26,596 nucleotides of DNA from a virus (Duplodnaviria; Caudoviricetes), in the IMG/VR virus record IMGVR_UViG_3300037424_001928, positions 1 to 26,596 of that record; one strand, written 5' to 3'. The position numbers and the translations under genes are program-made. The notes beneath the pieces were generated by a model. It did no database searches and was not told the origin of the DNA. It saw only the letters and a list, made by a program, of their open reading frames with translations. This document shows, one piece after another, positions 3,072 through 22,031 of this stretch. Each line of letters begins with the position of its first letter. The first letter of the stretch is position 1.

Positions 3072-3073
3072 TT

Positions 3074-3102: not shown

Positions 3103-3125
3103 GGAGGTGGAAATTTTAATTACTA

Positions 3126-5642
3126 ATGGGGAGCAAAAAAGCGAAAAGGCTACTATCCATCTTTCTATTAGTCCTGTTCTTTGCGCCAGCGGCGCAAGCC
3201 CAGGAACCGTTTAAGGTTTATCTACCCGTGATACTATCTTGCTTCAATCAAGACAACAATTGGCGCATCATTCAGCCGGTTGCCTCGACCAATTACGTCC
3301 TCAATCCAAGCGGCGAAATTGCCGGCAGCTCTGCCGACGTTGCCGGAGGGACCACAACCCGTAGTACTACTTATCAAAAATATGGCTTGTATTCCTACAA
3401 CGTCGTCACCGTAGCCGCCGGTGATGGCGTATCGCTTGACTTACTCACCCTGGCTAATTCAGCCCATTACGTCACCCTCCGGGCACGTAAATCCTATCCT
3501 ATCCTACAGGCCACGCTTGGCACTACTACCCATACGCTGCGCCTGATTGAAAAAATAGATGAGGACTGGGACCTGCTAGGGGTTGGCTTCCAGGCCGCCG
3601 ATGCAAACGGGGCCACGACGGTCGAAATAACGGCCACGGCCACGGGTGACTTTTACCTTGACGGCATCCAGGTCGAACCGCTGGCCTATTGGACCACCTA
3701 CATTGACGGCACTCAGCCGGGCTGCGGCTGGTTGGGGACGCCGCATGCTTCGGCTTCAGAGCGCAGCGGGGCTAGCCGGGCCGGGGGCAGGTCATTGGAT
3801 TTTTGGATGGAATACGGCTTCCAGGTCCAAAAGGTCATCGGGGCCGGAGCTGCTACTCATAAGTTGGGCGTGGATTCCTATGCCCTTTTGCCGGGGGGGG
3901 AACTCAATAGTGATAAGATTTTATCACGCGAGTTTCAGATTATCGGCAAATTCATAGCTGAAACGGAAGCAGACCTGCTGGAAAAGAAACGGGCGCTTGA
4001 GAGCGCATTTTATTCCAACGATACTCAATTGACTCGGCTGCGCTTCAACGGTGGGTTAGTGCAAAAAGAATTAGCTGTGAGGTATCAGGGCGGGCTGGAA
4101 GGCGACCTGGCTACGTTTTACGGAAATGTGGAGATTGTCGAGGACGAACGATACACCGAACACGAGCTTTACACCGAAAAGGCCGCTATCCAGGTGGTTG
4201 CACCCTATCCATACTGGCAAGAAGTGGGGGAGAGCGCGGCCCTGCTGGACACGAACGACAGCGCCACGTTTCGACTTGTAGCGGGTAGGCTGAGAAGTAC
4301 GGGGCAATGGGATGAATTGGGGCCACCCAACGCGGCGGGGACGTATACGGCAGTTTATGCCCTGGCCGAAGATGACATCTACCTGTATATTGGCGGTGAT
4401 TTTCTTAATTGGGACAATATAGCCAATGGTGACCGGATAGTTAGGCTAAACAAACAAACCGGCGGTTATTCTGCAATGGGAACGGGAGGTGGAAACGGGG
4501 GTGTTTTTGCGCTTGCGATTATGCCCAATGGGGACGTAATAGCGGCTGGTACATTTACCAGCATGGGTGGTGTTGCCAACACCACTCGTGTGGCTAGATG
4601 GGATATATTAACAGAAACTTGGAACGCAATGGCAATGGGGCTTGATAACACTATCTCCGCCCTGGTTGTTGGTTTGAACGGATTACTATATGCTGGTGGT
4701 CAACAGTCTAACAGGGTTGACAGTTGGAATGGGATTTTATGGTCAGGAGTAGGAGTTGTTGCAAATCCGTGTTTGGCACTGGCCATTGGACCGGATGGAA
4801 CGTTATACGCCGGGGGTGTTATAGCTCCGAATGGCGGTTGGCTTTCTTATTGGGATGGCAATTCGTGGACTTCTATATTTAGTAACGCAAATGAGTTTGT
4901 TGATGCTCTGGCCGTCGCTCTCAATAGCATCGTGTTTATTGGTGGTGATTTTACGAATATTGGGGGTGTTACTTACAATTACGCCGCCTCTTGGAATGGC
5001 ACGTCATTATCACCTCTAGGTGATGGAGTGAATGATATAATTACAACAATGAAAACTGCCCCGGATGATTCTATATACGCATCGGGGTCTTTTACCCAGG
5101 CGGGAAATGTCATTTTGGCTGACAGGTTAGCCAGATTTAATCGATATGCGTGGGCTAACTTGGATATAGATTTACCAGGTTCTCCCACATCCTATGGTAT
5201 TTTACCCGGTACTGCTGACCCTGTATTTAAGCAAAAGTACGACCTATGGCTTGGTTTCAACACCACCGGTACCGGCACATTCGCCGGCCTTGTCACCCCC
5301 ACTAACGGCGGAAACGTCGCCGCTTATCCCAGGATTGTCTTTACCCGTTCCGGGGGCACATCGGCCACGGTTGCCACATTGCGCAATGAGGATACCGGCA
5401 AAGAACTCCTCTTTAACTATGCCCTGTTGAATGGGGAAACATTGACCATTGACCTGACGCCGGGTAATCGGGCTATTATTTCCAGTTTCTTTGGTCCCCG
5501 GCCTGATGCAATTCTGGCAAATAGCGATTTTGGCTCGTGGGCTTTGCAGCCGGGCGACAATGACGTAAGTAGTTTTGTTATCAACAACGGGGCGACGATT
5601 ACGGCCTGGCTGACCTGGCGGGAACCATTTAGCGGGTATTAA
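3126..5642 (+). CDS. Evolved distal tail (Dit-like) protein with carbohydrate-binding module and beta-propeller insert; N-terminal signal-peptide-like extension
   Basis: Follows the TMP. CBM-like segment (TNYVLNPSGE...FYLDGIQVE...TTYIDG), Dit-like halves (REFQIIG...APYPYW; NGGNVAAYPRIVF...LQPGDNDV) and propeller blades (VYALA..LYIGGDF, VFALA..VIAAGTF, LYAGG). Confidence 0.75.
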   Translation: MGSKKAKRLLSIFLLVLFFAPAAQAQEPFKVYLPVILSCFNQDNNWRIIQPVASTNYVLNPSGEIAGSSADVAGGTTTRSTTYQKYGLYSYNVVTVAAGDGVSLDLLTLANSAHYVTLRARKSYPILQATLGTTTHTLRLIEKIDEDWDLLGVGFQAADANGATTVEITATATGDFYLDGIQVEPLAYWTTYIDGTQPGCGWLGTPHASASERSGASRAGGRSLDFWMEYGFQVQKVIGAGAATHKLGVDSYALLPGGELNSDKILSREFQIIGKFIAETEADLLEKKRALESAFYSNDTQLTRLRFNGGLVQKELAVRYQGGLEGDLATFYGNVEIVEDERYTEHELYTEKAAIQVVAPYPYWQEVGESAALLDTNDSATFRLVAGRLRSTGQWDELGPPNAAGTYTAVYALAEDDIYLYIGGDFLNWDNIANGDRIVRLNKQTGGYSAMGTGGGNGGVFALAIMPNGDVIAAGTFTSMGGVANTTRVARWDILTETWNAMAMGLDNTISALVVGLNGLLYAGGQQSNRVDSWNGILWSGVGVVANPCLALAIGPDGTLYAGGVIAPNGGWLSYWDGNSWTSIFSNANEFVDALAVALNSIVFIGGDFTNIGGVTYNYAASWNGTSLSPLGDGVNDIITTMKTAPDDSIYASGSFTQAGNVILADRLARFNRYAWANLDIDLPGSPTSYGILPGTADPVFKQKYDLWLGFNTTGTGTFAGLVTPTNGGNVAAYPRIVFTRSGGTSATVATLRNEDTGKELLFNYALLNGETLTIDLTPGNRAIISSFFGPRPDAILANSDFGSWALQPGDNDVSSFVINNGATITAWLTWREPFSGY

Positions 5643-5645
5643 AAT

Positions 5646-6770
5646 ATGGCCGGAAATTACGAAATCTATTTAACCACCGACACCGGTGTTAGACTGGCCG
5701 CCCTTGATAATTTTATATCCCTTGAGTGCAGCCGGGTTGCCAGCAGCATCGGCTCGTTTGGGATGTATCTACCCCTGAGCTTTAATCCCGATCTGATTGC
5801 TCCTGACCGGCAAATCCAGGTATGGCGACAACCCGACGGGGGACGGCTTGGTCTGTGGCGGGTTTACTTGCTGCGTAAATGGAAATTTAGCACGCAGGAC
5901 AGTGATCAGATGCTCGAAATAGCCGGGCCGGATATGAACGACCTGCTGCGCCGGCGCATCGTGGCCGCTTTTGCCGGCAGCGCCCAGGCCGGCAAAACCG
6001 ACTTTGCCGACGATATGATGAAAGAGATAGTGACCCAATCCATAGCCGACGGGGTTGCGCCGGTCCCTGCCGCTGGAACGCGGGTATGGTCTAATCTGAG
6101 TATTGCCGCCGACTTGGGCGATGGACCGACTATTACCAGGTCGTTCCCGTGGGAAAAGCTCCTGACCGCTTCTAACAATGGCGTTCTACCCCAATTGGCT
6201 AAAGCGGCCCGCGAGGCCGGGACGGAAGTATTTTTCGACATTGTGCCCAATGTGGTTAGCTCAAATTCCATCACATTTCAATTCCAGACCTTCACCGGCC
6301 AGCCGGGGCAGGACGTTAGCGACCGGGTGACATTCGACCAGGCCGATGGCAATATGAAAAACCCTTCTCTTGAATACGATTACACAGAGGAGGAAAATTA
6401 CATATACGCCGGGGGGCAAGGTGAGGAAAGCGACCGCAATATCCAACAGGTTTACGACAGTACCCGTTACGGTCAATCCATTTGGGGCCGTTGCGAGGGG
6501 TTTGCCGATGCCCGCAACCAATCTACAGACAACGGGGTTATCTCTGCCGGCAATACGCATTTGGAAGAGGGCAGGTCCCGGATCCGCTTTACAGCGCAGC
6601 CGCTTGATACAACCGGTACTCGGTTTGGAATTGATTGGGATTTTGGCTACCAGGTGGGGGCCAGATACCTCAATCGGCAATTTAACAGCATCATCCGGGC
6701 TGTGTCTATTGTAGTGAATGAAAATGGTGAAGAAATTCGGGCGCGGCTTGACTACGAGGCAGCAATCTGA
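5646..6770 (+). CDS. Siphovirus Gp37-like minor tail / baseplate hub protein
   Basis: Position after Dit. Motifs NYIYAGGQGEESDR, EGFADAR and RFGIDWDFGYQV resemble the ReqiPepy6 Gp37-like family. Confidence 0.75.
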   Translation: MAGNYEIYLTTDTGVRLAALDNFISLECSRVASSIGSFGMYLPLSFNPDLIAPDRQIQVWRQPDGGRLGLWRVYLLRKWKFSTQDSDQMLEIAGPDMNDLLRRRIVAAFAGSAQAGKTDFADDMMKEIVTQSIADGVAPVPAAGTRVWSNLSIAADLGDGPTITRSFPWEKLLTASNNGVLPQLAKAAREAGTEVFFDIVPNVVSSNSITFQFQTFTGQPGQDVSDRVTFDQADGNMKNPSLEYDYTEEENYIYAGGQGEESDRNIQQVYDSTRYGQSIWGRCEGFADARNQSTDNGVISAGNTHLEEGRSRIRFTAQPLDTTGTRFGIDWDFGYQVGARYLNRQFNSIIRAVSIVVNENGEEIRARLDYEAAI

Positions 6771-7228
6771 TGATAGAAGAACTCATCAGGCGGCTAACCA
6801 AACTGGAACGCGATTTTGAGGGATTGATAAAGCCGGAGACAGGCCGGTGGATAGATTGGACACCAACAGTAACTCAGGGGGTTGCGGTTGCGGTGACGGT
6901 GACAGGGGCTAAATATAAGGTTAGCGAAGATGATGTTAGGATTTATGCTCGGCTTGCCGTGACGGGAGCGGGAACGGCAGGGCAAGCTATTGCTCTTGCA
7001 GGTTGGGCGGCGGCTCTAAATCCCAATCCTGGCCCGGCAGGATGGCCTATGGGAGTCGGAATAATCATTGATGCTACAGGACCAACAACTTATAGTGCTG
7101 TTTGCCGCTACAGTAGCAATAATCTGGTTTTTGCCTCTCAAACGGCCAACGCTTTTTTGGGGAGCAACCCGGCTTTTACCCTGGCTAACGGGGATAGTAT
7201 TTATGCGAATATGTACTGGAAGATTTAG
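6770..7228 (+). CDS. Small tail / tail-tip protein
   Basis: Coupled to the previous gene (TGATG overlap). N-terminal coiled coil, then a WIDWTPTV beta-rich domain ending LANGDSIY, typical of tail-fibre tip domains. Confidence 0.6.
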   Translation: MIEELIRRLTKLERDFEGLIKPETGRWIDWTPTVTQGVAVAVTVTGAKYKVSEDDVRIYARLAVTGAGTAGQAIALAGWAAALNPNPGPAGWPMGVGIIIDATGPTTYSAVCRYSSNNLVFASQTANAFLGSNPAFTLANGDSIYANMYWKI

Positions 7229-7283
7229 CCTTGTAGTGCTTTCAGTATCCTGCCAGGAGTGTGCTTTGTTGGGTATTCGAAAA

Positions 7284-8885
7284 TCAGGGAGACAGGACTA
7301 AAATATCCTGTAATTTGTATACCAGTTTACCTGTGAACTGGTCTACAATTGACAAAACGGTACTATCGAGAAGGCACGTCAGCCGGATGTTTTTGAAATC
7401 CGGCATAATTTCGGCGGACACGTCCAGGACTTCAACCCACCCCTGCTTTATATCAAACGGCTCGTTATATGTTTCCAGTCCCTCGCTAAACACCCGGTAC
7501 ACCTCCGCAAACCGGACCACTGCCGCCCGTCGTTCCAAGATCAAATTAAGTGATAAGCCGAGTTCTTTCTCTTCGGTTTTTAGCCTGTTCAATTCATTCT
7601 TGAGCGCGGCCCTAGCCTCCTTAATATCTTCCTCTTCCGCTTCATCGGCAAACGCCAGTAGCAGCCGTTTCAGTTGCCTCATTAGTTTTTCCTGCCGTTC
7701 TCGATTTTGGCGCAGCGTTGTTTCAAGCTGGCCTTCCTGGCCTATATCGCCCTTCAGCGCCTGATCAATCAGCCGGCTTGAGTAATCCGGGTCTGACAGG
7801 ATACGCTTAATCCAGGTCCACACAATATTGTCTATCAGGTCTACCCGGAAATGGGGCAAGCCGCATGGGTCCGCCGTCACATAGCGGTGGTGAGAGCCAC
7901 AGCGATAATATTGATGATTAGCCAGCCGGCCTTGCAAAATTCGACCGCACAAAGGGCACTTGATGCGCTTGAGCATCAGGTACCCGTGTTTAGTATTGCG
8001 ACTGGCCATGGCTTTGTTTTTGGCCATAATCACCTGTGCTCTATCGAATATAGCCCGGTCGATGATAGTCGGGACTTCAACGGCTATCAGATCGTCAATC
8101 GGATTGGGCACGTGATGGTGCTTGCCCTCTACCTTAACAGAGGTGTTTTTTCCCCAGTACCACACGCCGGTGTAGGTTTCGTTTTTGAGGACACGGATAA
8201 CGCCGGTGGTCCCCCATTCCCCGTATTTTTTCTTTTTCTGAAAATGACCGCGTAAATCTGACCAGGTAGGTATTTTTTTCTCCGTGAGGTAATCCGCAAT
8301 TTTGGCCAGGCTCAAACGATCAATAGCGTACAGTCTAAAAATCAACCTGACTATCTCGGCCTCGCTCTCTTCGATTATCAGCTTGCCGTCTACGGCTCGG
8401 TAACCATAAGGGGGCCTGCTGTTTACCTGGACGTAGCCCTGAGTGGCCCTGGTTCGTTTCCCCATCCGGCACATCTTTAGAAATTCCTTGCGCCAATAAT
8501 CGGCAAAACGCCCCTGGATGTCTTCTACTACAGCCCCACCCAGAGAGTTTAAATCAATAAGGCCGCGTTGGGTATAGTGAAGTTCTATCCCCTTCGCGGC
8601 CCATTCGTCCCTGAGTTTAACGTAGTCGAGCGGATTACGACTAATGCGGTGGCTCTCGTAAGCAACCACGGCGGTTGCGGTTCTGCTGGCCAGTTGATTT
8701 TGTAGCTCGGTAAAGCCCGGACGATTGAGGGTCATCCCGGTTTCATCGTCAAAGATTTCAACTACCAGATTTAGGTTGTTTTTCTGGCAATACGAGCGGA
8801 TGCTCTGTATCTGCCCTTCCAGGCTCGCTCCCGTTTCGGCCTGTTCGTCGGATGACACCCTGGCGTAGCCGATTGCGTTCTTCAT
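7284..8885 (-). CDS. Large serine recombinase (integrase)
   Basis: Catalytic YARVSS; resolvase-type segment (RPGF...RISRN); recombinase domain (PPYGY...VLKNETYTG); Zn ribbon (CPLCG...YYRC...C); coiled coil. Confidence 0.96.
   Translation of the reverse strand: MKNAIGYARVSSDEQAETGASLEGQIQSIRSYCQKNNLNLVVEIFDDETGMTLNRPGFTELQNQLASRTATAVVAYESHRISRNPLDYVKLRDEWAAKGIELHYTQRGLIDLNSLGGAVVEDIQGRFADYWRKEFLKMCRMGKRTRATQGYVQVNSRPPYGYRAVDGKLIIEESEAEIVRLIFRLYAIDRLSLAKIADYLTEKKIPTWSDLRGHFQKKKKYGEWGTTGVIRVLKNETYTGVWYWGKNTSVKVEGKHHHVPNPIDDLIAVEVPTIIDRAIFDRAQVIMAKNKAMASRNTKHGYLMLKRIKCPLCGRILQGRLANHQYYRCGSHHRYVTADPCGLPHFRVDLIDNIVWTWIKRILSDPDYSSRLIDQALKGDIGQEGQLETTLRQNRERQEKLMRQLKRLLLAFADEAEEEDIKEARAALKNELNRLKTEEKELGLSLNLILERRAAVVRFAEVYRVFSEGLETYNEPFDIKQGWVEVLDVSAEIMPDFKNIRLTCLLDSTVLSIVDQFTGKLVYKLQDILVLSP
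7309..7354. other. Putative attP site (imperfect palindrome centred on CT at 7331-7332) inside the integrase 3' end
   Basis: tgtaatttgtataccagtttac-CT-gtgaactggtctacaattgaca: 22-bp arms with 18/22 inverted identity around a 2-bp centre, the geometry of serine-integrase attP sites. Confidence 0.7.
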
Positions 8886-11485: not shown

Positions 11486-11710
11486 TCAAACCAGAGCCTC
11501 TTGATCTACAACTATCCAGGTCCGTTTATTGCTATTTGGGTGCTTACCTATGGTAATAAGCCCCTTTTGTTTCATACGGTTAATGGTTGAACCATTGACA
11601 GTTCTTCCGCCTATCTCCCAACGGTTCCCAAACGGACCTGTTCTAATTGGTATGGCTGGATGCACCCTCAAGAGTTCGAGTAGTTGCTTCTCTGTTTTGG
11701 TCATTCTCAC
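11486..11710 (-). CDS. Small basic protein, possible winged-helix
   Basis: GTGA overlap with the helicase-methylase stop; pattern MTKTEKQLLELL...STINRMKQKGLI. Confidence 0.6.
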   Translation of the reverse strand: MRMTKTEKQLLELLRVHPAIPIRTGPFGNRWEIGGRTVNGSTINRMKQKGLITIGKHPNSNKRTWIVVDQEALV

Positions 11711-14688
11711 GCGACCTCCTCTAACGGTTCTTTGGTTGTGCCGTTGCCGTTGTGGTTTTGTTGTTGCTCCAACCAGTCGGAGAAGGTTGGCGCAAGTGCT
11801 TTTAGTTCAATGTTTTTGCAATAGCGTACCCCCTCATCAAAGTATTGGCGATTTAGTTCGATTACTACAGCCCTTCGGTTCATTTCAATTGCTACATACG
11901 CGGTAGTCAGTAGTCCCCCAAACGGATCAAAAACTATATCACCCTCGTTGCTACAGAGCCGGATAACCCGCCGTACCACGTCAAAGGGGAGAGGGCAAAT
12001 ATGCTTCTCTCGCCCATCCAGACTTTGCAACGTGTTCAAGCCGTGCATAAAATTTACGTCATCCCAAACCCAATCCTCATCAGAACGAGTAACGGCGGGG
12101 GGACAAAGCATTACCGAAGCAGGTAATCTATGATTACGGTCAAGCGCCTCGCAAATTTCAATGTGCCGATCGTAGTCGTAAGGATGGGTCAGTTGCTCAT
12201 TCTTAAAAACTGCATAGATGTCTTCTGGCATTAATTGAGCGTATTCTGCTGGCGTAAGAAGTCGGTTTCCGTTTGAGCGCCATTCGCTATGAGCATCAAC
12301 TTGCCAGCGTCCCCGGCTGAAATCGTCCTTGCTCTTTGTTACTGGCTCATCAGCGTAAGCGTTATCACTGGACGTAGGGGGCTTGCGAAAGAGTAGGATG
12401 TACTCAGGTAAGCCACTGCCCATCTTGGTAGCATCCTTACACATCTCCGACCAGCCGAGCCGGTAAGTGCTGTTATTTTCCCTAACTACATCGGTCACGA
12501 CAGTTCGTCTACCTTCGTACATAAAACCGTGCTTACGAAAAGCCATTACGCACTCGTCAGAGAACGGGGAGACTTCCATAAAGCCGGTCTTGGTTTGATG
12601 ACCGTAAAGAATACGGTCCTTAACGTGAATAGCGGCGACACGCCCCGGTTTCAACGTCCGAAGCAGTTCAGGGATGAGAAATTCCATTTGTAGCCAAAAT
12701 TTATTGTCATTGTCGTTGTAACCGAAGTCGTTCTTTTTGTCTGTATATTGGAAATGATTTCCAAAAGGTATACTGGTGCAGAGTAGGTCAACTGAGTTGT
12801 CAGCCATCCCGAAGATTTCAGCCACGCAATCGTTATGAATAGCCGTAAAACACTTGCCGTCTACTTGCTCACGAACTACGCCGATAGAGCGCCGGCGCGT
12901 TGCCTGGCTCAAGGCAGTTCGAGTTAGGCCATATTTGCGTATAATCTCTCGCATTTTCCCAACGAGGATATCATGCTGCGCCCATTTGTGTTTGAGGCTT
13001 TCAAGTATCTGGTCTTCGCTTTCAGCGTAGATAATATGTACGTCTACCGGGTCGTTTTGGAGAAAACGATGATTACGATGGATCGCTTGGATAAAATCCT
13101 GGAAGCGGTAATCAATACCCAAAAAGACAACCTTGTGACACTGCTGAAGATTTAAGCCAGAACCAAGCATTTCCGGCTTGCTTAAAAGAATATGGGTATA
13201 CTTATCTTTCCACTCATACAAGCGTCGTTCTGCCTCATCTGTAGGGAGTGACCCCTGAATAGAAGAAACGGAAAGCCCCATTTTTTCTAAAGCAGATTTC
13301 GCAATACGCTGTTCATCGTTTAGGTGACACCAGATGACGAATTGCGTAGGTAATCCGCCGCCCTCTCCAGAATAAGGATGCTCTCCTGAAATTGCCCCAA
13401 TGCTGCATTGCATAGTCGGCAAAGAAGACCCCTGACCTTTCTCGTTTGATGATCGTGGTCCACTACCCCCACAGTCAGACCGTATTCCCTCTGAAGTTTG
13501 TTCTTCCGATTGGTAACACTTGCTCTCTTCTTGTTGTCGATGTACCATTGCCGACTGCGGGTCCTGACTTTTTCCCGATTGGCGTCGCTGTACTTTTGTG
13601 TGAGTTCCTTGTAGCGTTCTGGATTTTCCTTCCGCCAGCGTCGGTTTTTCTCCTTGATCCTTTCCTTGTTTTTCTGATAGTAAGTCTGACCGTAAGTCTT
13701 GACCTTTTCTTTGTTCTTCTGGTAATACTCCCTGAAGTACTCTTTCGTTGCTGACAATTTGTGTCATCCTTTCAACTCGGTCATCTATGGTGGCGCGTTT
13801 CTCTGCGCTGGCTTCTCTCACCCCCCCGGCGGCGTCAAGAAATAATCGGTGTTGCCCTCGGTCGTCGGTTTGTTCCCAGGCCCGGCTCTGATCAACGCCA
13901 ATACGGTGATAATGAACTCGGAGTTCTGGCAGGTCATAACCTTCGGTATCATAACCCAGATCACTGGGGTGATATAGGAATAGCGCCCATGATGCGATCC
14001 AAAGCCAGAAGTCGGCTTCGTGTTGGGGGTGAAGGGTCAAATCATTCGCCTTGTTGGGGTTACGTTTGAACCAGTGGTTTAGAGATAAATTGTAATCCAT
14101 CACGCCTAACCACTTGGCATAATAAATGAGTTCGCGGAAACGGTTTGGGGCAGGCGTTGCAGTGCAGACGTAGCGGTAAGGGACATTGGCAAAAACCTGT
14201 AAAAAAATCTCGTAGGTTTTACTGCCCAAGCTGCGGAGTACAGAACCCTCGTCAAGAGAACAGCCGCCGATATTGTGTTTGCGTGGATCAATGTCACCGT
14301 CTCGCACCCGTTCATAATTCGTAAGAAGATAGGGTGTATCTGCTGCTTCAATTTCCGCATCAGTACGTACGTATTGGAAATGAATATCCAGACGCGGACC
14401 ATCTTCCTCAATAAATTGGTGTTTAACCCCCAGAGGACAGACAATTAGGAACTTACCACCTGTTTGTTGGTGAATGAGCCTGGCTAATTCCAATTGCACA
14501 ACCGATTTTCCTAATCCGAAGCTGGCCGCGATCAACCCCCGACCTAGTCGGGTTGCCCACATCACCATATCACGTTGATGAGGGAACAGCGACGGATGAA
14601 TGTTGCTTGCTTCAACCTCAAAGCCGCTGTAGTCGGCTAATTCAACTTTGCCAGCTAAAAATTCATAATATTTGTCAAGTACAGTCAT
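11707..14688 (-). CDS. SNF2-like helicase fused to an N4-C/N6-A DNA methyltransferase, with a ~130-codon insertion in the helicase
   Basis: LFPHQ, Walker A-like FGLGKS, DEGS, TATP; helicase-C motifs (WCHLNDEQ, GSGLNLQ, QAIHRNHRFLQ); MTase motif IV variant TSIPF and motif I DPFGG in beta order. Confidence 0.9.
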   Translation of the reverse strand: MTVLDKYYEFLAGKVELADYSGFEVEASNIHPSLFPHQRDMVMWATRLGRGLIAASFGLGKSVVQLELARLIHQQTGGKFLIVCPLGVKHQFIEEDGPRLDIHFQYVRTDAEIEAADTPYLLTNYERVRDGDIDPRKHNIGGCSLDEGSVLRSLGSKTYEIFLQVFANVPYRYVCTATPAPNRFRELIYYAKWLGVMDYNLSLNHWFKRNPNKANDLTLHPQHEADFWLWIASWALFLYHPSDLGYDTEGYDLPELRVHYHRIGVDQSRAWEQTDDRGQHRLFLDAAGGVREASAEKRATIDDRVERMTQIVSNERVLQGVLPEEQRKGQDLRSDLLSEKQGKDQGEKPTLAEGKSRTLQGTHTKVQRRQSGKSQDPQSAMVHRQQEESKCYQSEEQTSEGIRSDCGGSGPRSSNEKGQGSSLPTMQCSIGAISGEHPYSGEGGGLPTQFVIWCHLNDEQRIAKSALEKMGLSVSSIQGSLPTDEAERRLYEWKDKYTHILLSKPEMLGSGLNLQQCHKVVFLGIDYRFQDFIQAIHRNHRFLQNDPVDVHIIYAESEDQILESLKHKWAQHDILVGKMREIIRKYGLTRTALSQATRRRSIGVVREQVDGKCFTAIHNDCVAEIFGMADNSVDLLCTSIPFGNHFQYTDKKNDFGYNDNDNKFWLQMEFLIPELLRTLKPGRVAAIHVKDRILYGHQTKTGFMEVSPFSDECVMAFRKHGFMYEGRRTVVTDVVRENNSTYRLGWSEMCKDATKMGSGLPEYILLFRKPPTSSDNAYADEPVTKSKDDFSRGRWQVDAHSEWRSNGNRLLTPAEYAQLMPEDIYAVFKNEQLTHPYDYDRHIEICEALDRNHRLPASVMLCPPAVTRSDEDWVWDDVNFMHGLNTLQSLDGREKHICPLPFDVVRRVIRLCSNEGDIVFDPFGGLLTTAYVAIEMNRRAVVIELNRQYFDEGVRYCKNIELKALAPTFSDWLEQQQNHNGNGTTKEPLEEVA
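13320..13757 (-). CDS. Endonuclease VII-family (homing endonuclease-like) gene overprinted in the +1 frame inside the helicase-methylase
   Basis: YGLT...VDHDHQTRKVRGLLCRLCNAALG...LERAADYL EndoVII signature; basic helical N-terminal repeats (YYQKNKE x2); AAAGGA 9 nt upstream of the TTG start. Confidence 0.85.
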   Translation of the reverse strand: MSATKEYFREYYQKNKEKVKTYGQTYYQKNKERIKEKNRRWRKENPERYKELTQKYSDANREKVRTRSRQWYIDNKKRASVTNRKNKLQREYGLTVGVVDHDHQTRKVRGLLCRLCNAALGQFQESILILERAADYLRNSSSGVT

Positions 14689-14690
14689 CT

Positions 14691-15014
14691 TTAATAAACC
14701 TCCGCTATCAATTCAATCGCCGGCGGCATCTCCGCCCGTATCTTTGCCAGTTCTTCTTTCAGCGCCGGGTCGAACCAGGCGGCAATGATGTCCAGCACCG
14801 CTGCGGTGAGGTACGGCTCACTCACCCACCAGGCTTTTGTGGTTTTGTCGAACCTTCTGGCGTGGCCGGGGAGTTGGGTTTTTAAGTCCTCAACGAAGCC
14901 TTTGTGGTAGGGCGTGTGGAGGTGATAGCCGCCCTGAGTAGGCGTTATCTTGACCTTGCCACCGGCGAAGGTCATTTGAGATTTGAGGTTAAGGGACAGA
15001 AGTTGGTTATTCAT
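14691..15014 (-). CDS. Small HARP-like domain protein
   Basis: TPYHKGFVEDLK..LPG..RRFDKTTKAWWV resembles the HARP-like pattern (PY...IK.IPGR.WD...K.W). Confidence 0.55.
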   Translation of the reverse strand: MNNQLLSLNLKSQMTFAGGKVKITPTQGGYHLHTPYHKGFVEDLKTQLPGHARRFDKTTKAWWVSEPYLTAAVLDIIAAWFDPALKEELAKIRAEMPPAIELIAEVY

Positions 15015-16753
15015 TTAAGTACCTCGATACACCGTTCCAGGATCATTGTCATCACCGGTGGTGTAACCGCGTTCCCGTATTGCTTGACCCGTTCCCGTTC
15101 GGTTCCCAAAACAGTATACGTATCAGGAAAGGCCATCGCTTTGCCTATCTCGTGACTTTTGAGCATACGAAAGTAACAATCCTCAACGGCTGGCTCACTA
15201 CCCGGCTGCACCAGGCCGTGCCGGTCGTGAGTTGAGACCGTAGCAACCGGGTCAGTCACGGGTTTAGCCTGGTCGCTGCCGCTATAGTAGGAGACCAGGA
15301 AGGGTGAAGGAATAGTCAAGCCTAACTTTTCACCAGTCGTCTGGGTTGGCATTGGATCAGTTACCGGGCGGGTTATCTCATCGAAATAATTGACCGAGGT
15401 CAGGAAGGGCGATGGTGTAACTAATCCGTGATGGTTGCCACCTGCCAGGACGCAACCCAACACATCGGTCAATGGTCGGGCCTGCGTCCCACTGCCGTGC
15501 ATCTCAACCAGGTATGGTTGCACCAGGCCGTGGTGAGTGGTGGTCAAAATACTTCCCATTGGGTCGGTGATTGGACGAGCGCTACTCTGACCATAAAGCT
15601 CAACCAGATAAGGCGCTCCGACCGTGCTTTGAGTAGGTAAAGACTCAGTGATGTGCTTTAGTGGATAATCCGGCGAGTCTCGCATCGAGACGACAAAGGC
15701 CAATGTTTGGCGGCTTGTCTGGGTGGGAATGGGTTCATACATATTGTGACACTTGCCGGGGTGTTCGGCGTGAGTGTGGCCTAAATCTACAAGATAATGC
15801 ACCGGCCAGGTAGGTTGAGTGGGAAGCGGTGCATCAATAGGAGAATTGGCCGCCCTTCCCACTGCGCGGGTATAATAACTTGTCAAAAACGGCTGCCGTC
15901 CATACTTCTCCAACCCCACCCGAATCCGGTCCAACGTCTTTTCCTTGAGCGGTCTCTTTCGGTCGCCAATTCGCTCAGAAGGTAATGCCCAGTCTATGGC
16001 ATTGGCAGCACAGTAGTAGTACGGTGTCACCTCGCCGGCGCAAGTTGGGCAGTGGTAAAGATACTGGCGGTTCTTGCCATAGCGTCCCCATCGTTTGCCT
16101 GGATTTTTCCAGCCCTGAACCGCTGCGACATTGCACTCACAGCGGGGACAATAAGCCGGCGGGGTAAAACGAAGGTCAGGCGCTTTGTTGCCGCGTTTCC
16201 AGAAAACCACGTACATGCGGTCGCGGCTCTGGGGTGTTGGGTGGGCGAACATTGAATTGAAGTAAACAATTTCGTGGTTGTAATCGAGTGACGACATAGC
16301 TTGTAACCAGGCGTTAAACAGCCGCCAGTTTCGAGCATCAACCACGTTCTCGGTGATAATGAGCCGGTAATCGTGAATCTCGGCAAAACGTGGGGTATCC
16401 CACATCGTGGCCCGACTGCGTTCCTCTGCCGGGTCAATGATGGCCTTGCCAAACATCTCCATCTGGGCCTGGTATTTGCGCTGTTTGCCTTTAGCCAGGC
16501 TGTGATTTGTGCATTCCGGGCTGGTGATCAGAATATCGGTTGAAGGATACCGGCGCGGGTCACAGGCCGAAATGTCGGTGCAGTCAACGTCCGTGTTTGG
16601 ATGATTAGCTGAGTAGGTTTCTACAGCGCGTTTCCAGTGGTTCATAGCCTGCTGAAGTTCGGCTCCGGCCTCAACAGCTCCGATACTGCTGCCACCTGCC
16701 CCACAGAATTGATCGGTTACGGTAAGGTAAGATTTTTTCATTCTTGATTCCAA
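15011..16753 (-). CDS. DNA cytosine-C5 methyltransferase with repeat-expanded variable region
   Basis: Motif I DQFCGAGG, motif IV SPECTNHS, motif VI ENV, motif VIII PQSRDR, motif X QYGNAV. Confidence 0.93.
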   Translation of the reverse strand: MESRMKKSYLTVTDQFCGAGGSSIGAVEAGAELQQAMNHWKRAVETYSANHPNTDVDCTDISACDPRRYPSTDILITSPECTNHSLAKGKQRKYQAQMEMFGKAIIDPAEERSRATMWDTPRFAEIHDYRLIITENVVDARNWRLFNAWLQAMSSLDYNHEIVYFNSMFAHPTPQSRDRMYVVFWKRGNKAPDLRFTPPAYCPRCECNVAAVQGWKNPGKRWGRYGKNRQYLYHCPTCAGEVTPYYYCAANAIDWALPSERIGDRKRPLKEKTLDRIRVGLEKYGRQPFLTSYYTRAVGRAANSPIDAPLPTQPTWPVHYLVDLGHTHAEHPGKCHNMYEPIPTQTSRQTLAFVVSMRDSPDYPLKHITESLPTQSTVGAPYLVELYGQSSARPITDPMGSILTTTHHGLVQPYLVEMHGSGTQARPLTDVLGCVLAGGNHHGLVTPSPFLTSVNYFDEITRPVTDPMPTQTTGEKLGLTIPSPFLVSYYSGSDQAKPVTDPVATVSTHDRHGLVQPGSEPAVEDCYFRMLKSHEIGKAMAFPDTYTVLGTERERVKQYGNAVTPPVMTMILERCIEVLK

Positions 16754-17016
16754 TGTACCCGGTATAGGTAAACCATATTTCCGTTTCGTTGGGCGTAGTC
16801 GCTAAAGCTGGGCCTGGCCGGCTCGGTTCGTTTGGCCCGCTGGCACCGGTGTTGCAGTTCGGAAATATAGATATTTTGGTTGTTCAGAAGGCAGGTCAGT
16901 TCCTTGATCTGCCTGTCACGCTCCCGGATCTCGCTGCGGTAGTGACGGTGGTAAAGGCGGGAGAGGATGGCGCCGGTCAGAGCAGCCAGGACCAGGGTAA
17001 AGATGGTTAGGGTCAC
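16738..17016 (-). CDS. Small single-TM protein with coiled coil
   Basis: AAGGAG RBS; N-terminal hydrophobic helix. Confidence 0.65.
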   Translation of the reverse strand: MTLTIFTLVLAALTGAILSRLYHRHYRSEIRERDRQIKELTCLLNNQNIYISELQHRCQRAKRTEPARPSFSDYAQRNGNMVYLYRVHWNQE

Positions 17017-17028
17017 TTGATTAACTCC

Positions 17029-18429
17029 TTAAAAGTTTTTTCGAGCTTCCAAATCAATAAATGTGGTTACGTGCTTTTTGAAGTAGGTTGTCAACGATCC
17101 GGTTCTGCCCCCTCGGTGTTTAGCCACAATCAACTCTGCTACATTTGGGAATTGGGTTTCCGGGTTGTAAACTTCATCCCGGTAGATAAAAATGACTGCA
17201 TCGGCATCGTATTCCCAGTTTCCACTTTCGCGCAGGTCAGATAACACGGGCCGCTTATCGTGACGCTCCTCGCATTTTCTGGACAAAGAGGCTACGCACA
17301 CAACTGGGACCTTTAACCCGTTCGCCATCCGCTTGAGCATGGCCGATACCGCGCCTAATTCGGCATCCCGGTTTTGATAGTTCTTACTCACCGTTACCCG
17401 TTGACCATAATCTACCACTATCAAATCAAGGCCATGTTTCCACTGGTGAGTAATAGCTCGCGCTCTAATAGCTTCAATGTTTTGGGTTATGTCATCAATG
17501 GTCAAAGGCCATCTCGAAATACGATCAACTACTTTGTTGATCTCTGAAAACTGGCCGCTAGTTAGCCCCTTGTTTCTCATGGTCTCGGTATCTATGCCGG
17601 TTTCGCTTGACACCAGTCGCTCTACTAGCTCATCACCTATCATCTCCAGGCTAAAATAGAGCACCTTCGCCTGTCGCTTCAGCGTAGCCGTCTTTGTCAT
17701 TTGCAAAACCAGGGCGCTCTTGCCCATCCCGGGACGGCCAGCTACCAGAATGAGTTTTCCCTGCTGTAACCCCCCAAGTATTTTGTCTAGATCGTAAAGG
17801 CCGGTCGGAAGTCCAACTATGTCATTTTCATTAGCGTAGTAGGTATCAAGGGCCTCACTAAACTTCGTGCAAAAGTACCCAATCGAGCGCGCTTGCCCTA
17901 TCTGATTATTGGTAGAAACCTTTAGCAACACGTCGCTAGCTTCCTGGATGATATTGGTGGGGTCATCATCCTTGCTTTCGAAACTAAGCTGGGCAATTTC
18001 CCCGGCTGCGGTTATCAGATTTCGCCGGACCGCGTCCCGCTTTACAGTTCGGGCATAATAACCGGCATGAGCTGAGGTTGGCGTTACATTAAGCAAGTAG
18101 GTTAAATGAGCCGCACCTCCCAGTTCTTCTAGTTGGCCCTGTCGTTCCAGTTCATCGCATAAGCTCACGATGTCACAATGTGCGCCAAGCTTTTTGGCCG
18201 CTGCAAAAACCCAGCCGTTACGATGGATAAAAAAGTCGTCCTGGGTGATGCCTATTTCATCACACCAGATAAGTGCATCCGGGTTAATCAAAATAGAACC
18301 TATCAAAGCTTCCTCGTTTTCAATGTTATGAGGCTGCAACCGGTCAGGCGCTGTGCCGTTGTCCCAAATAGTTGGTTCTTTGGGCTGCGCGCCATTCCTG
18401 CCGTTTTTGTAAGTCTTCTTGATTTCCAT
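17029..18429 (-). CDS. dnaB: Replicative DNA helicase DnaB
   Basis: PHNIENEEALIGSIL, AGRPGMGKS, FSLEM, IVVDY, RPVLSDLRESGNWEYDAD, IVAKHRGG. Confidence 0.97.
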   Translation of the reverse strand: MEIKKTYKNGRNGAQPKEPTIWDNGTAPDRLQPHNIENEEALIGSILINPDALIWCDEIGITQDDFFIHRNGWVFAAAKKLGAHCDIVSLCDELERQGQLEELGGAAHLTYLLNVTPTSAHAGYYARTVKRDAVRRNLITAAGEIAQLSFESKDDDPTNIIQEASDVLLKVSTNNQIGQARSIGYFCTKFSEALDTYYANENDIVGLPTGLYDLDKILGGLQQGKLILVAGRPGMGKSALVLQMTKTATLKRQAKVLYFSLEMIGDELVERLVSSETGIDTETMRNKGLTSGQFSEINKVVDRISRWPLTIDDITQNIEAIRARAITHQWKHGLDLIVVDYGQRVTVSKNYQNRDAELGAVSAMLKRMANGLKVPVVCVASLSRKCEERHDKRPVLSDLRESGNWEYDADAVIFIYRDEVYNPETQFPNVAELIVAKHRGGRTGSLTTYFKKHVTTFIDLEARKNF

Positions 18430-19391
18430 TACGCAACGCCTGCGTTGTGAATTTGCTCTTTGTCCTCTTCGCGCAGGCGCTGGTAAAGAGCCATATCTAT
18501 TTTGGGCAGTGATTGGGGAACGATATTCCCATTTGTGGTCGGCATTGGCCGACCTGCCTGGATCCAGGATTTATACTGGCCCCAAAATTCACCAACTTGT
18601 TTCAATGTCGGAACGGAATCACCCCTCCCGGTCCAATGATGGGTTTTTCGCCATTTTTCAAAGTCAATAACTTCATCCGGCTTGGCATCCTCTTCGGCCA
18701 AAAACGCCAACAGCGATGATAATGATTTAGTTAAATCCTTTGACCTTTTGACAAATGCCCATTTCAATCTGCAAATTTCTAAAACAGATTGGCAAACAGG
18801 ACCGGGCGTTACCTCCTCTGTTGTTTTTGCTGGAGTCTTTGCTGTTATGGATTTTAGACATTGTTGAATTTCGATTTTAGAGTTTGTTGAATTTCGATTT
18901 TCAAGATTGTCTAAAATCGAAATTTCACTATCTTGAATTTCGGGATTGTCTAAATTCGATTTTGAACTATCCTGAATTTCGGGATTGTCTAAATTCGATT
19001 TTGAACTATCCTGAATTTCAACACTGTCTAAAATCGGAAATTGTTTAGCTATTTGGTCAAGAATAAAGGTCATATTGGCTCGATAGTGAATAGTTGGGGC
19101 GCCATTGGCGTTGGTTTTCATCAGGGAAATAAATCCAGCGTTTTCGAGTTCTTTGCCTAACCTTGTTACCTGAGCATAGCTTAGACCGGATTCCGTTTTC
19201 CATTCACTGGCTTTTTTCCAGAAGAAACCGTCTTCGCGGTCACCTTTATCGCTCCACCAAACAATACGATCCAGGAATAGTCCGCGTAACGGATCTCCCG
19301 TGATGGTGATATAGATTTGAGTAGACCATTGCTTCTGACCGGATAATTGCTCGGTCAAGTCAATGATGGTCTGATAGTTATTTGAGGACAT
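18429..19391 (-). CDS. Phage replication initiator (lambda O-like wHTH) containing iterons
   Basis: N-terminal wHTH (DGFFWKKASEWKTESGLS..QV...L...GFI...PTIHYR), central tandem repeats, directly upstream of and coupled to dnaB. Confidence 0.85.
   Translation of the reverse strand: MSSNNYQTIIDLTEQLSGQKQWSTQIYITITGDPLRGLFLDRIVWWSDKGDREDGFFWKKASEWKTESGLSYAQVTRLGKELENAGFISLMKTNANGAPTIHYRANMTFILDQIAKQFPILDSVEIQDSSKSNLDNPEIQDSSKSNLDNPEIQDSEISILDNLENRNSTNSKIEIQQCLKSITAKTPAKTTEEVTPGPVCQSVLEICRLKWAFVKRSKDLTKSLSSLLAFLAEEDAKPDEVIDFEKWRKTHHWTGRGDSVPTLKQVGEFWGQYKSWIQAGRPMPTTNGNIVPQSLPKIDMALYQRLREEDKEQIHNAGVA
18850..19040. repeat. Iteron array / probable replication origin
   Basis: Exact 39-bp tandem duplication (18934-18972 = 18973-19011); a TGTCTAAA(A/T)TCG core recurs four times at 39-bp period (units starting 18905, 18944, 18983, 19022); an inverted core and two ttgttgaatttcgatttt copies lie at 18850-18901; AT-rich. 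Confidence 0.8.
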
Positions 19392-19803
19392 CCAGGCTCA
19401 ACATTTCTTGGCGGCGTAAGTTGATTTTTTTTAGTGCTATAGCGTTCCTGACTTTTTGAACGCATATTCTGGTTTCGTTCCAAACCTCCGAACCGGTAAA
19501 CCGAACTACAGTCCAGCCCATTCGTTCTATTTCTTTTTGGCGGCAATAGTCTTTCAGAATTTGGTCAACAGTTGAATGATAATTGCGCCCATCGACCTCA
19601 ATAGCGGTTTTTTCTTTTTCAATGGCAAAATCAACCCGGTAAGGTCCAATTTGATACTGACAAGTTACACCCTCAAGTTTTAGGTTTTTGGCCTCTTGCA
19701 GAAACAGCTCTTCCATCGGACTTTCTGTTTCAGTTCGACCAATCCCTATCTCTTGCTCGTATAGCTTAATTAACGTACCGAGTTGCCATGTTGCCACTAT
19801 CAC
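19378..19803 (-). CDS. DUF559 / Vsr-like PD-(D/E)xK endonuclease
   Basis: ESPME...QYQIGPYRVDFA...AIEVDG..YH...D..RQ...GWTVVRFTGSEV. Confidence 0.9.
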   Translation of the reverse strand: MIVATWQLGTLIKLYEQEIGIGRTETESPMEELFLQEAKNLKLEGVTCQYQIGPYRVDFAIEKEKTAIEVDGRNYHSTVDQILKDYCRQKEIERMGWTVVRFTGSEVWNETRICVQKVRNAIALKKINLRRQEMLSLDVLK

Positions 19804-19871
19804 CGCACCTCAATTCTCTGCAATCTTCGGGCGTCCCGGATGACGGTTTTAATCCAGTTGATAAGGCTCAT
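19800..19871 (-). CDS. 23-aa peptide (MSLINWIKTVIRDARRLQRIEVR)
   Basis: ATGA overlap with the upstream stop and GTGA overlap with the DUF559 start; GGAGG upstream. Confidence 0.5.
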   Translation of the reverse strand: MSLINWIKTVIRDARRLQRIEVR

Positions 19872-20263
19872 CTTGCCTCCCGGCGATACTTCCGTACAAC
19901 CTCGGTGGCCGTCTTCTCGGTCGCGACCAGGTTGTATCCGGCCAGGCTGGGTAGCAGGTCGAGCAATGTCACCCGGCGCGTCGGTGTTTCTTTTGGCTGG
20001 CCGGCGCGTTTGAGCCAGGTGATCCTGGCGTGAGCGTCGTTGGGGTCCCGACCGTAATTCCTGCTGGCAATGAGCAGATCGAACCCTGCCTCTGGCTGCG
20101 CTGTTAGCCGGGTCAGGGCCGCTTGCATCGCGGTTACGATGATCTGCACCGCATCGGCGGCAAAGCCGTTGCCGAGCATCGTTATGGCGTGTTGGTGGGC
20201 CTTTGGGTCCAGGGTTCGCAACTGGAGCAGTTGCAGCTTGTGAACGGTCTTGAAGGTGGCCAT
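19868..20263 (-). CDS. Hypothetical phage protein
   Basis: Packed operon; AAGGTGGG upstream. Confidence 0.65.
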   Translation of the reverse strand: MATFKTVHKLQLLQLRTLDPKAHQHAITMLGNGFAADAVQIIVTAMQAALTRLTAQPEAGFDLLIASRNYGRDPNDAHARITWLKRAGQPKETPTRRVTLLDLLPSLAGYNLVATEKTATEVVRKYRREAR

Positions 20264-20266
20264 AAT

Positions 20267-20401
20267 TCACCCCACCTTCCCAATTTTGGCGAGTTGGGCT
20301 TTTTTGCAATCGGCACAAATGCCGTGGCTGATTTCCGTGGCGTTTGGGTCTCCACCCAGAAAGCGACCGCACCAGGCACAAATGATTTTGTGGACGCTCA
20401 T
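20267..20401 (-). CDS. 44-aa zinc-finger protein (CAWC...SHGICxxC)
   Basis: ATG 20401 overlaps the upstream stop (ATGA); MSVHKIICAWCGRFLGGDPNATEISHGICADCKK. Confidence 0.75.
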   Translation of the reverse strand: MSVHKIICAWCGRFLGGDPNATEISHGICADCKKAQLAKIGKVG

Positions 20402-20688
20402 TCGAGCACCCCGGCCAGTTCGGCTTCGGACATCTCGACCAGCGAACGGGCCGCCTGGGTGTGATCTTCTGACCAGGCAACTTCGTCGCCGCCAAGGATG
20501 ATGACAAAGTCTGAGCCGAAGGAATAGACGCCATCGGCCAACAGGGGCAGGTGGTGAGACTTGCAGCACACGCAATCACCGCAGTGTTGCCCAAATTGGC
20601 AGGCAGTACAAAAGCGGCTATTCGATTGAATAACTGAGGTGAGTTTTTGCGCAGAAAGCGCCGGATGGGTAATATTAAGGGCAGGCAT
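20398..20688 (-). CDS. Cys-rich hypothetical protein, first gene of the leftward transcript
   Basis: CTACQFGQHCGDCVCC cluster; first ORF after the leftward promoter and structured leader. Confidence 0.6.
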   Translation of the reverse strand: MPALNITHPALSAQKLTSVIQSNSRFCTACQFGQHCGDCVCCKSHHLPLLADGVYSFGSDFVIILGGDEVAWSEDHTQAARSLVEMSEAELAGVLE

Positions 20689-20714
20689 TGCAGAAGCTCT
20701 CTTTCTGTCGTGCT

Positions 20715-20886
20715 AGAGCCGTTTTGGTGTTTGCTGCACCGGGCGGCTCGCCTATTCTTAAGGAAGCAAAAGGGCCAACTCTGTTCTTGTCTGCCAGGAC
20801 GTTGAACGATTGAGTTGGCCCTATTGCTTTCCCTAAAAATAAGGGATATGATAGCTTTGGTTGTTACTTCATCCAACGTCCTGGCA
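20715..20886 (-). ncRNA. Structured 5' leader with interleaved stems (pseudoknot or switch) plus a GC hairpin
   Basis: 13-bp perfect inverted repeat (20792-20804 / 20874-20886) interleaved with a ~17-bp inverted repeat (20764-20781 / 20812-20829), followed by the GAGCCG..GGTG-loop-CACC..CGGCTC hairpin. Confidence 0.55.
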
Positions 20887-20892
20887 CTCACT

Positions 20893-20921
20893 ATAATATC
20901 ATACATCTGTCCTAATGTCAA
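20893..20921 (-). promoter_or_regulatory. Strong leftward sigma70-type promoter
   Basis: On the - strand: TTGACA, 17-bp spacer ending TGa, TATTAT (extended -10). Confidence 0.8.
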
Positions 20922-20952
20922 GACATCTGCTGTAATTGATAATACATCTGTC
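20901..20952. promoter_or_regulatory. Three direct-repeat operator-like sites
   Basis: ATACATCTGTC (20901), AGACATCTGCT (20921), ATACATCTGTC (20942); 20-21 bp period; overlap the leftward promoter and abut the repressor RBS. Confidence 0.7.
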
Positions 20953-20964
20953 AGGGAGGGTAAT

Positions 20965-21192
20965 TTGATACAAGTTAAGCTATTTGAATTTTGGAAGCAA
21001 AAGGAAATCGAGCTTGGCCGCACTATCCAGGTTACTGAGGTATCAAAGGCAACTGGTATTAGCCGTGATACGCTGACACGGTTAAAGGCCGGAAAGACGG
21101 CCCGTCCTGATCTAGCCGTTATTGATAAACTTTGCAGATATTTCGATATTCCCACCGGTACAATTCCTTTTTTGGTTTATGAGGAGGACTAA
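20965..21192 (+). CDS. Cro/CI-type HTH transcriptional repressor (75 aa)
   Basis: AGGGAGGG RBS before TTG 20965; HTH VTEVSKATGISRDTLTRLKAGK...IDKLCRYFD. The longer ORF-track start (20815) runs through the promoter region and is unlikely. Confidence 0.9.
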   Translation: MIQVKLFEFWKQKEIELGRTIQVTEVSKATGISRDTLTRLKAGKTARPDLAVIDKLCRYFDIPTGTIPFLVYEED

Positions 21193-21193
21193 T

Positions 21194-21295
21194 TTATCCG
21201 AAGAACAACCACAACACCATTAGCCCACCGGCTGCATAAGCCAAAGTGGCTATGGTGCAAATGATAAAATCAATCGCGTCGTATCTATCGAACAT
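21194..21295 (-). CDS. 33-aa single-TM peptide
   Basis: GGAGGA RBS; MFDRYDAIDFIICTIATLAYAAGGLMVLWLFFG; stop 1 bp from the repressor stop. Confidence 0.6.
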   Translation of the reverse strand: MFDRYDAIDFIICTIATLAYAAGGLMVLWLFFG

Positions 21296-21298
21296 TGG

Positions 21299-21583
21299 TT
21301 ATTCCTCCCACCGTTTTTTATTCTTCCCGGCCTTCGTGGCCAGTTGCTTTTTCAACCGCTGTATCTCCGCTCTGGCTTCTGTAAGTTGGGCCAGGGCCTG
21401 CTCGTTTTCCCGGTGGTAATCCTCTGCCACCTGCTGCCACTGTTCAGCGCAGGCGATGGCTTTGGCGATTTGGTTGTTCGAGTCGTCAACCAGGCGGTTC
21501 ATCTCATCGAGCAACTGCTCTGGTGATAGCCGTTTGGTTGACGGCCGGCGGGGTTGGCACTTGAGGCCGGTGACGTAGCTCAT
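21299..21583 (-). CDS. Coiled-coil hypothetical protein
   Basis: ATGA overlap at 21580-21583; heptad-rich C-terminal half. Confidence 0.65.
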   Translation of the reverse strand: MSYVTGLKCQPRRPSTKRLSPEQLLDEMNRLVDDSNNQIAKAIACAEQWQQVAEDYHRENEQALAQLTEARAEIQRLKKQLATKAGKNKKRWEE

Positions 21584-21858
21584 ATCGGTAAATTCACGTA
21601 TTCCAAACACTGCTCAAGGCTGGCTTTGGTGAGACTAAAATCACCGACATTTACCCAGTCGTGTTTTTTTGATAAAGGCACAAATCGCTGCACCTGGATG
21701 TAATTCTTGTCCCTGAAAAATCTGACTGGGGGTTGCTCCAATTCAATCGTGGCTCCGGCTTTGAGCAGGGCCAGCAGGGACATATTCGAAGTAAGTGCTG
21801 TCATTTCACGATCCTTAATTCGTGCTCCGGGTAGCTGAGCGTGGTATTTGTGAGCCAT
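21580..21858 (-). CDS. Hypothetical protein (start MAHKY...)
   Basis: TGATG coupling at 21856-21860; GAGGG upstream. Confidence 0.65.
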   Translation of the reverse strand: MAHKYHAQLPGARIKDREMTALTSNMSLLALLKAGATIELEQPPVRFFRDKNYIQVQRFVPLSKKHDWVNVGDFSLTKASLEQCLEYVNLPI

Positions 21859-22031
21859 CAGACCGCCCTCGTTTTGGCCTTGATGATTTTCGCCCTGGCC
21901 GCTTTGACCGCCTCGGTGGTGTGTCCGAACAGCTTGTAATCTGACCACATTGTTTCGATCAGGACACGGCGCATGGCCTGTAAATTCGGCTTTTTGGCCG
22001 CTGGTTTTTGGGATAGCTTAAAACGTGCCAT
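21858..22031 (-). CDS. 57-aa basic hypothetical protein
   Basis: Manual translation MARFKLSQKPAAKKPNLQAMRRVLIETMWSDYKLFGHTTEAVKAARAKIIKAKTRAV; fills the operon gap with coupled ends. Confidence 0.55.
   Translation of the reverse strand: MARFKLSQKPAAKKPNLQAMRRVLIETMWSDYKLFGHTTEAVKAARAKIIKAKTRAV

Follow-up and report, generated by a model that had tools for sequence, protein, structure and literature searches.

We analysed a window of 26,596 nucleotides of viral DNA (positions 1 to 26,596 of IMG/VR record IMGVR_UViG_3300037424_001928), in which a 993-residue SNF2-type helicase fused to an N6/N4 DNA methylase (11707..14688, minus strand) carries an endonuclease VII (EndoVII) gene hidden in its +1 frame. 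We propose, with a probability of about 0.8, that this is a nested homing element that needs no splicing: the host frame is held open across the EndoVII gene, the helicase would be made whole with a disordered loop, and the nuclease would be made as a separate protein.

The hidden reading frame and its start signal

The hidden open reading frame (ORF; 13320..13757, minus strand) is offset from the host frame by one base in the downstream direction and encodes 145 residues from a TTG start, with a K/R/Y-rich helical N-terminal part and a catalytic C-terminal part. As an earlier note on this DNA had reported, it lies wholly within the 993-codon gene and on the same strand. That note's assignment to the EndoVII family was borne out by a Pfam profile search, which matched Endonuclease_7 with an E value of 5.6e-15 over positions 40-82 of 82 only. 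The catalytic motif DHDH...R.GLLCxxCN (13407..13460, minus strand) is intact and holds the equivalents of D40, H41, H43, R54, C58, C61 and N62, among which D40, H41, H43, R54 and N62 place the ORF with the DHHRN/EndoVII nucleases. When a profile was built from the nucleases of 24 relatives, its best matches among solved structures were Hpy99I and T4 endonuclease VII.

The signals for translating the ORF lie where the earlier note had placed them. A Shine-Dalgarno (SD)-like AAAGGA (13767..13772, minus strand) is written into host codons E306-R307-M308, 9 nt ahead of the TTG; the TTG straddles host I311-V312, and the TAA stop straddles L456-N457 within the WCHLNDE motif. The SD and TTG of the window score -5.4 kcal/mol. 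Across the family described below, a start codon in the +1 frame preceded by an SD scoring -4 kcal/mol or lower was found in 21/25 inserted loci versus 5/61 uninserted loci (p 1e-11), and the nuclease start was often drawn from host codons M-E-I. Judged from these signals, the nuclease has a start of its own.

A family of inserts at the same helicase site

Uninterrupted homologs had been expected to have a short linker at this site, and they do. Among the best 120 of 5061 homologs, 116 have 18-43 residues between the positions of R304 and W453, versus 150 residues in the window and 206-213 residues in P0012, P0025 and P0105. We then collected same-site inserts by searching DNA for a degenerate pattern of the downstream junction; the pattern required a particular sequence type there (type B, see below) but no open frame upstream. 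It matched 13 sequences from viruses, 17 from metagenomes and 9 from genomes (39 in total). Setting aside two non-helicase matches (L121 and L134), seven duplicates, three without the upstream anchor (L115, L120 and L124) and three short remnants left 24 distinct matches, which together with the window make 25 full-length inserts. In all 25 the host frame is open and the insert length (450-675 nt) is divisible by three, and the two CxxC pairs and the DHxH...RG.LC..CN motif are present in every one of the 24 relatives. Named hosts of the inserts include Microbacterium, Glutamicibacter, Dactylosporangium, Paenibacillus, Variovorax, Azospirillum and a Caulobacter metagenome-assembled genome (MAG); the hosts, in which the inserts lie in prophages, span Actinomycetota, Bacillota and Pseudomonadota. 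A protein search with the insert region of P0012 gave 3 matches among 4499 candidates and is too insensitive for allele counts.

The three short remnants at the site are also in frame (L112, 90 nt; L114, 129 nt; L135, 138 nt). In the remnants of L112/L116 (P0010) and L114, the C-terminal helix of the nuclease can still be read in the +1 frame. L135, an Actinomycetota MAG, has, besides its in-frame remnant here, a second remnant at the site used in phage Pacc40, which is short and Cys-rich and contains a frame break. A distant helicase-methylase subfamily (L161:1827-4622) also has a same-site +1 insert, with a stop in the N-terminal part of its nuclease frame.

Selection on the two reading frames

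In this register, a nuclease codon ending in T and followed by a codon starting with AA, AG or GA creates a host stop, and we scored the sites at which T would be a synonymous choice. A synonymous T that makes a host stop was used at 0/854 sites, versus 455/1989 (23%) at the other sites of the same ORFs. The window by itself has 29 such sites, none of them used, with 11.2 stops expected. By chance, 0.9 of the 25 loci would be expected to be open under host codon usage and 0.14 of 25 under their own T rate.

As controls we used 82 distinct EndoVII loci (from 160) gathered regardless of context by a viral scan with the window nuclease, whose mostly N-terminal low-complexity matches served as controls only, and by a second scan that covered 5 of 64 parts and from which 80 of 599 matches were kept. 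In 79 control loci, T was used at 1014/2517 sites (40.3%) versus 2057/5175 (39.7%), that is, without avoidance. The corresponding frame was open in 3 of the 82 and held 12.4 stops on average.

The inserts share ancestry, yet their third nuclease codon positions, the most variable, are only 42% identical, so that there has been time for most sites to diverge. Amino-acid identity among the inserts is 41% in the nuclease frame versus 25% in the host frame, and the nuclease frame was the higher in 300/300 pairs. Because conservation follows the nuclease frame, the host-frame peptide is under selection only to be readable. Taken together, the codon choices indicate that the host frame is kept open by selection.

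The nuclease of the window has lost its first zinc pair

The first CxxC pair, present in 24/24 relatives, is absent from the nuclease of the window, which keeps the second pair only. Between YGLT and VDH the window has 3 residues versus 26-36 in the 22 relatives that could be measured by script (2 of 24 could not), which places the junction of an in-frame internal deletion of about 23-33 codons at 13461..13473 (minus strand). DHHRN/EndoVII nucleases bind one zinc with two CxxC pairs, and the window ORF is in this respect a degenerate member. According to the available text of PMC6083498, the single changes C23S or C61S in T4 Endo VII and C84S in F-CphI give inactive enzymes; with its first pair lost, the window nuclease is therefore likely inactive. 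The earlier note had rightly recognised an EndoVII-type ORF here but had overlooked this loss, and the copy is probably dead. An assembly artefact as the cause of the deletion became less likely, since one record of 151 bases from a second run (X2, with a depth of 2.4 and possibly of the same campaign) spans the junction unchanged; another run, X1, may be the source.

The moving unit extends beyond the nuclease

Compared with its five closest relatives (P0003-P0007), the window protein is 79-84% identical at aa 30-310, 33-37% at aa 449-522, 77-83% at aa 523-600 and 79-86% in the methylase. The divergent stretch is a RecA2 segment (QFVIWCHLNDE ... NLQQCHKVVF, aa 449-522; 13123..13344, minus strand) of what we call type B, with QxVIWCHLNDE, versus the type A of P0003-P0007, with HWxxWHHLEDE. 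The same exchange separates P0012 (inserted, type B) from P0072 (empty, type A), which are 99-100% identical outside the segment but 35-45% at aa 449-515; the change comes after EKRAT..RV and is reversed at FLG[IV]DY. The pairs P0010/P0038 and P0021/P0117 have the same switch points, with only remnants of the insert left. A scan with P0007 found no DNA closer than 62%, and the tract ends are for that reason mapped at the protein level.

The two parts of the gene also differ in their trees. In a tree of the N-terminal part (199 rows, excluding 4 distant ones and 3 that were misaligned or duplicates), the window groups with the five type A proteins (support 99), and the 25 inserted rows require 19 changes, of which starred branches force 8 or more. 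In a tree built from 43 chosen rows of the segment, types A and B are split with support of 100/100, and placing the window with P0003-P0007 is rejected (approximately unbiased test, p 7e-8). Within the best-120 set, type B occurs in 4/4 inserted proteins (window included) versus 14/116 uninserted ones (p 4e-4), and P0122, L194 and L161 agree.

From this drop in identity, the moving unit appears to comprise the endonuclease, the SD-bearing end of the preceding helix and a replacement of about 74 codons of RecA2, a putative cassette covering host aa ~305-522 (13123..13776, minus strand). The insertion described in the earlier note is real, but the unit would be larger than the ORF to which that note confined it, about 74 host codons downstream being foreign too. 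The tract may mark a distant cut, or merely the next usable homology.

An alternative holds that the nuclease is a domesticated accessory, a resolvase or an enzyme that cuts competitors, rather than a selfish element, and that the A/B mosaic arose by ordinary recombination at conserved motifs. The family does include resolvases and restriction enzymes, with Hpy99I and T4 Endo VII as its best solved matches, and type B alleles occur without an insert. The patchy spread and the identical tract ends in four backbones fit a homing cycle instead, as do the repeated decay to remnants and the loss of the zinc ligands in the window, and we consider domestication highly improbable.

Fate of the host product

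In the host frame the insert reads as an S/G/Q/E-rich stretch (aa 318-446; 13351..13737, minus strand). AlphaFold2 gave it a predicted local distance difference test (pLDDT) score below 50, with a confident helix before it and a strand after it. The deletions observed within inserts (window, L112, L114 and L135) all preserve the host frame; read-through of the insert demands this, whereas splicing does not. The helicase is thus likely translated straight through the insert, which would form a disordered surface loop, as far as sequence and model can tell.

Removal of the insert at the protein level, by protein splicing of an unknown type or by proteolysis of the loop, would leave a short or two-chain helicase and would explain the open frame equally well; moreover, out-of-frame EndoVII genes have been reported inside inteins (bioRxiv 10.1101/2025.01.02.630785, in the text available). 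Against this, the host-frame insert had no Pfam or PHROG match and no HINT/intein domain. Its termini are not conserved and show neither a C/S start nor an HN-C/S/T end, and its identity is no more than the nuclease frame imposes. We regard removal as protein as highly improbable.

Phage homing endonucleases are commonly found in introns, and an insert of 130-200 residues is a large burden for a helicase, so the insert might instead be removed as a cryptic intron RNA or skipped by a ribosome bypass of the gene 60 type, in which case the helicase would never carry the loop. This leaves the avoidance of stops (0/854) unexplained and gives no reason for lengths, deletions and remnants in multiples of three. 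An Rfam covariance search for introns gave no match in the window or in five inserted loci, and the ORF fills the insert. Such removal is very improbable.

The helicase motifs on both sides of the insert are essentially invariant despite the deep divergence of the inserts: among the inserted alleles, K61 is kept in 28/28, D146-E147 in 29/29, R541 in 30/30 and the methylase S-P-F in 29/29, which correspond to the Walker A lysine, the DE motif, the motif VI arginine and the methylase motif, respectively. This, the open frame in the helicases of the Gordonia phages Squiddly and Malisha, which have no fused methylase, and a strain near that of the window (run X3), in which 12/19 changes in the host gene and 4/5 in the type B segment are synonymous (13304-13824 uncovered), make it very unlikely that the insert inactivates the helicase half and that the open frame serves only translation of the downstream methylase, even though two inserted loci are broken downstream and the gene is probably dispensable, as the available text of PMC11855218 states for the ShiLan methylase.

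Returning to the nested, splicing-free element, several points weigh against it or its parts. The inserted loci are not fully independent because of their shared ancestry. As 24/25 inserts were found via the type B pattern, the link between type B and the insert rests on the unbiased sets; there are also 31 rows of type B alleles without an insert, so the segment may be an old hitchhiking allele. Only 4/19 aligned rows cover the insert, which partly explains the low pLDDT. Some inserted hosts are broken, since in 2 of the 25 the host frame is cut short by a stop downstream of the insert (L105, within the methylase, and L118, within the helicase C-lobe) and L135 has a host frame break upstream of its remnant; in L124 it is the nuclease frame that is interrupted by a stop.

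The earlier note had read the stretch as dual-coding and free of splicing, with a host frame without stops, an ORF that leaves no room for a ribozyme and no intein termini. Each of these points stood, and the short uninserted linkers, the frame register in 25/25 inserts, the avoidance of stops, the conservation of the nuclease frame and the predicted disorder all fit that reading, as judged from sequence and model.

A proposed homing cycle and its wider reach

In the cycle that we propose, translation of the nuclease would start at a ribosome-binding site of its own, apart from that of the host protein. The nuclease of an intact relative would cut an uninvaded type A allele at some point within the replaced stretch. 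With the invaded gene as the template of repair, the block from the conserved EKRAT..RV helix to FLG[IV]DY would be copied whole, and with it a type B RecA2 segment that cannot be cut. The nuclease would then decay by deletions in multiples of three, until short remnants and the type B segment remain; the window, with its zinc pair gone, would be an early step of this decay. Homing with co-conversion is suggested by the mosaic flanks together with the precedent of the T4 free-standing endonucleases, and the target is expected inside the stretch that was replaced, which would narrow it to ~220 bp.

Nested EndoVII genes under a long open host frame were found in 4/82 control loci, a terminase and a DNA polymerase among them. 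In a terminase large subunit (L211:489-2798, plus strand), the EndoVII ORF (1244-1921) lies in the +2 frame, with the host frame open for ~320 and ~300 codons on its two sides; in a Family A DNA polymerase (L213:2039-4222, plus strand), the ORF (3052-3384) again occupies the +2 frame, beneath an open host frame. A Pfam search found no intein domain in either. In Squiddly gp64 (L216) and Malisha gp71 (L269), an unannotated, intact EndoVII ORF sits at the helicase loop used in the window. It is read in the +2 frame, however, and is therefore likely an independent capture. In both phages helicase and methylase are separate genes, and the helicase frame is still open across the same-site insert.

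A more ambitious picture, to which we give slightly less than even odds, is of a three-part homing cassette, with its own start signal, a hidden nuclease and an immune 74-residue RecA2 replacement, that needs no splicing and little local homology. Such a cassette could spread, even across bacterial phyla, into alleles whose target segment is only ~35% identical, and the swapped segment would outlive the decay of the nuclease. Nested genes of this kind may account for a few percent of the EndoVII genes in phages, reach essential genes and form a third general route beside introns and inteins. The strategy predicts that annotation overlooks many phage nucleases and misreads low-complexity 'linkers'. 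P0012 and P0072 provide a natural pair of invaded and empty alleles, and Squiddly and Malisha are cultured phages with such inserts.

Host gene and genomic context

The host protein has the Pfam domains SNF2-rel_dom (aa 37-209), Helicase_C (aa 449-542) and N6_N4_Mtase (aa 633-952), matches phrog_16 (DNA helicase, E 4e-100) and is open throughout; its AlphaFold2 model, when matched to structures, resembles SNF2 ATPases. The SNF2 ATPase N-lobe (14062..14580, minus strand) contains the Walker A sequence GLGKS and DEGS, motifs that are kept in the inserted alleles, and the methylase domain occupies 11833..12792 (minus strand). Long insertions also occur in the methylase half of this family, in L001 (Pacc40 gp60), L130, L247 and several further homologs, and the one in Pacc40 gp60 is an intein-like sequence ahead of CPLQFD. 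The helicase-methylase gene is a hotspot for mobile inserts.

The window is a fragment of a temperate siphophage. Its layout by Pfam and PHROG (24-8885 and 15011-24696) includes a tape measure and tail genes on the plus strand and a serine integrase (7284-8885, minus strand), as well as a C5 methylase (15011-16753), DnaB, a replication initiator, a DUF559 nuclease, a Gp3-like recombination factor and DUF6610. Pfam and PHROG searches gave no match for a 451-residue ORF (19800-21155, minus strand), and PHROG searches gave none for two further nested ORFs (16027-16452 and 14106-14444).

Comparison with known systems

The earlier note had proposed a mobile-element strategy without splicing. The strategy is supported here but had already been published in 2025, including an example from this host gene family: a hidden out-of-frame HNH gene was described in an actinophage methylase (ShiLan), together with Pacc40 gp60 (Arsenault, Gosselin and Gogarten, PMC11855218, in the text available). 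The element in the window shares the defining features of ShiLan, namely an insertion absent from homologs, a stop-free host frame, an alternative-frame nuclease ORF that fills the in-frame insertion, no intron or intein features, a predicted loop, and a patchy, disjunct spread on the host tree, which was read there as homing. It differs in its nuclease (EndoVII here, HNH there, the term EndoVII being absent from the main text of PMC11855218) and in its site (helicase here, methylase there). Here the SD travels with the element; for ShiLan none was found and a leaderless start was proposed. A selection test and a replaced flanking segment are given here, and neither appears in the available text of that paper. 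Pacc40 gp60 (FJ174692), also a helicase and methylase with an open host frame, is 51% identical to the window protein, but its insertion follows PSDI (~aa 245 of the window protein) and holds an HNH-like ORF of 159 residues, and the site used in the window is empty.

The out-of-frame EndoVII genes within inteins belong to the same nuclease family and likewise lie in a shifted frame beneath an open one; there the intein splices the passenger out, whereas no intein domain is present here. With F-CphI and other DHHRN homing endonucleases, the window ORF shares the C-terminal catalytic motif (D-H-x-H, R, CxxC-N), but F-CphI is free-standing and the window copy is without the first CxxC (PMC6083498). 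Our literature search, whose coverage excluded subscription journals and supplements, found only the ShiLan papers and the intein preprint to be relevant, and nothing on this helicase site, on nested EndoVII genes without an intein or on the replacement of a flanking segment. What is new here is the nuclease family, the site, the wide host range, the selection signal, the co-moving replacement segment and the degenerate nuclease. Quantitative support, in the form of stop avoidance, in-frame decay and retained host motifs, is thereby added to a strategy for which the reports so far concern a few actinophage genes and include no selection test, and the strategy is extended at one helicase site to phages of Actinomycetota, Bacillota and Pseudomonadota. 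Finally, as in the intronless homing of the T4 Seg and Mob endonucleases, mobE in Aeh1 nrdA and mobA in gene 60, the flanks appear to be co-converted and the insertion lies in a coding region; unlike mobE and mobA, which split their host genes into separate coding regions according to the available text of PMC2988022, the element described here leaves its host as one frame.

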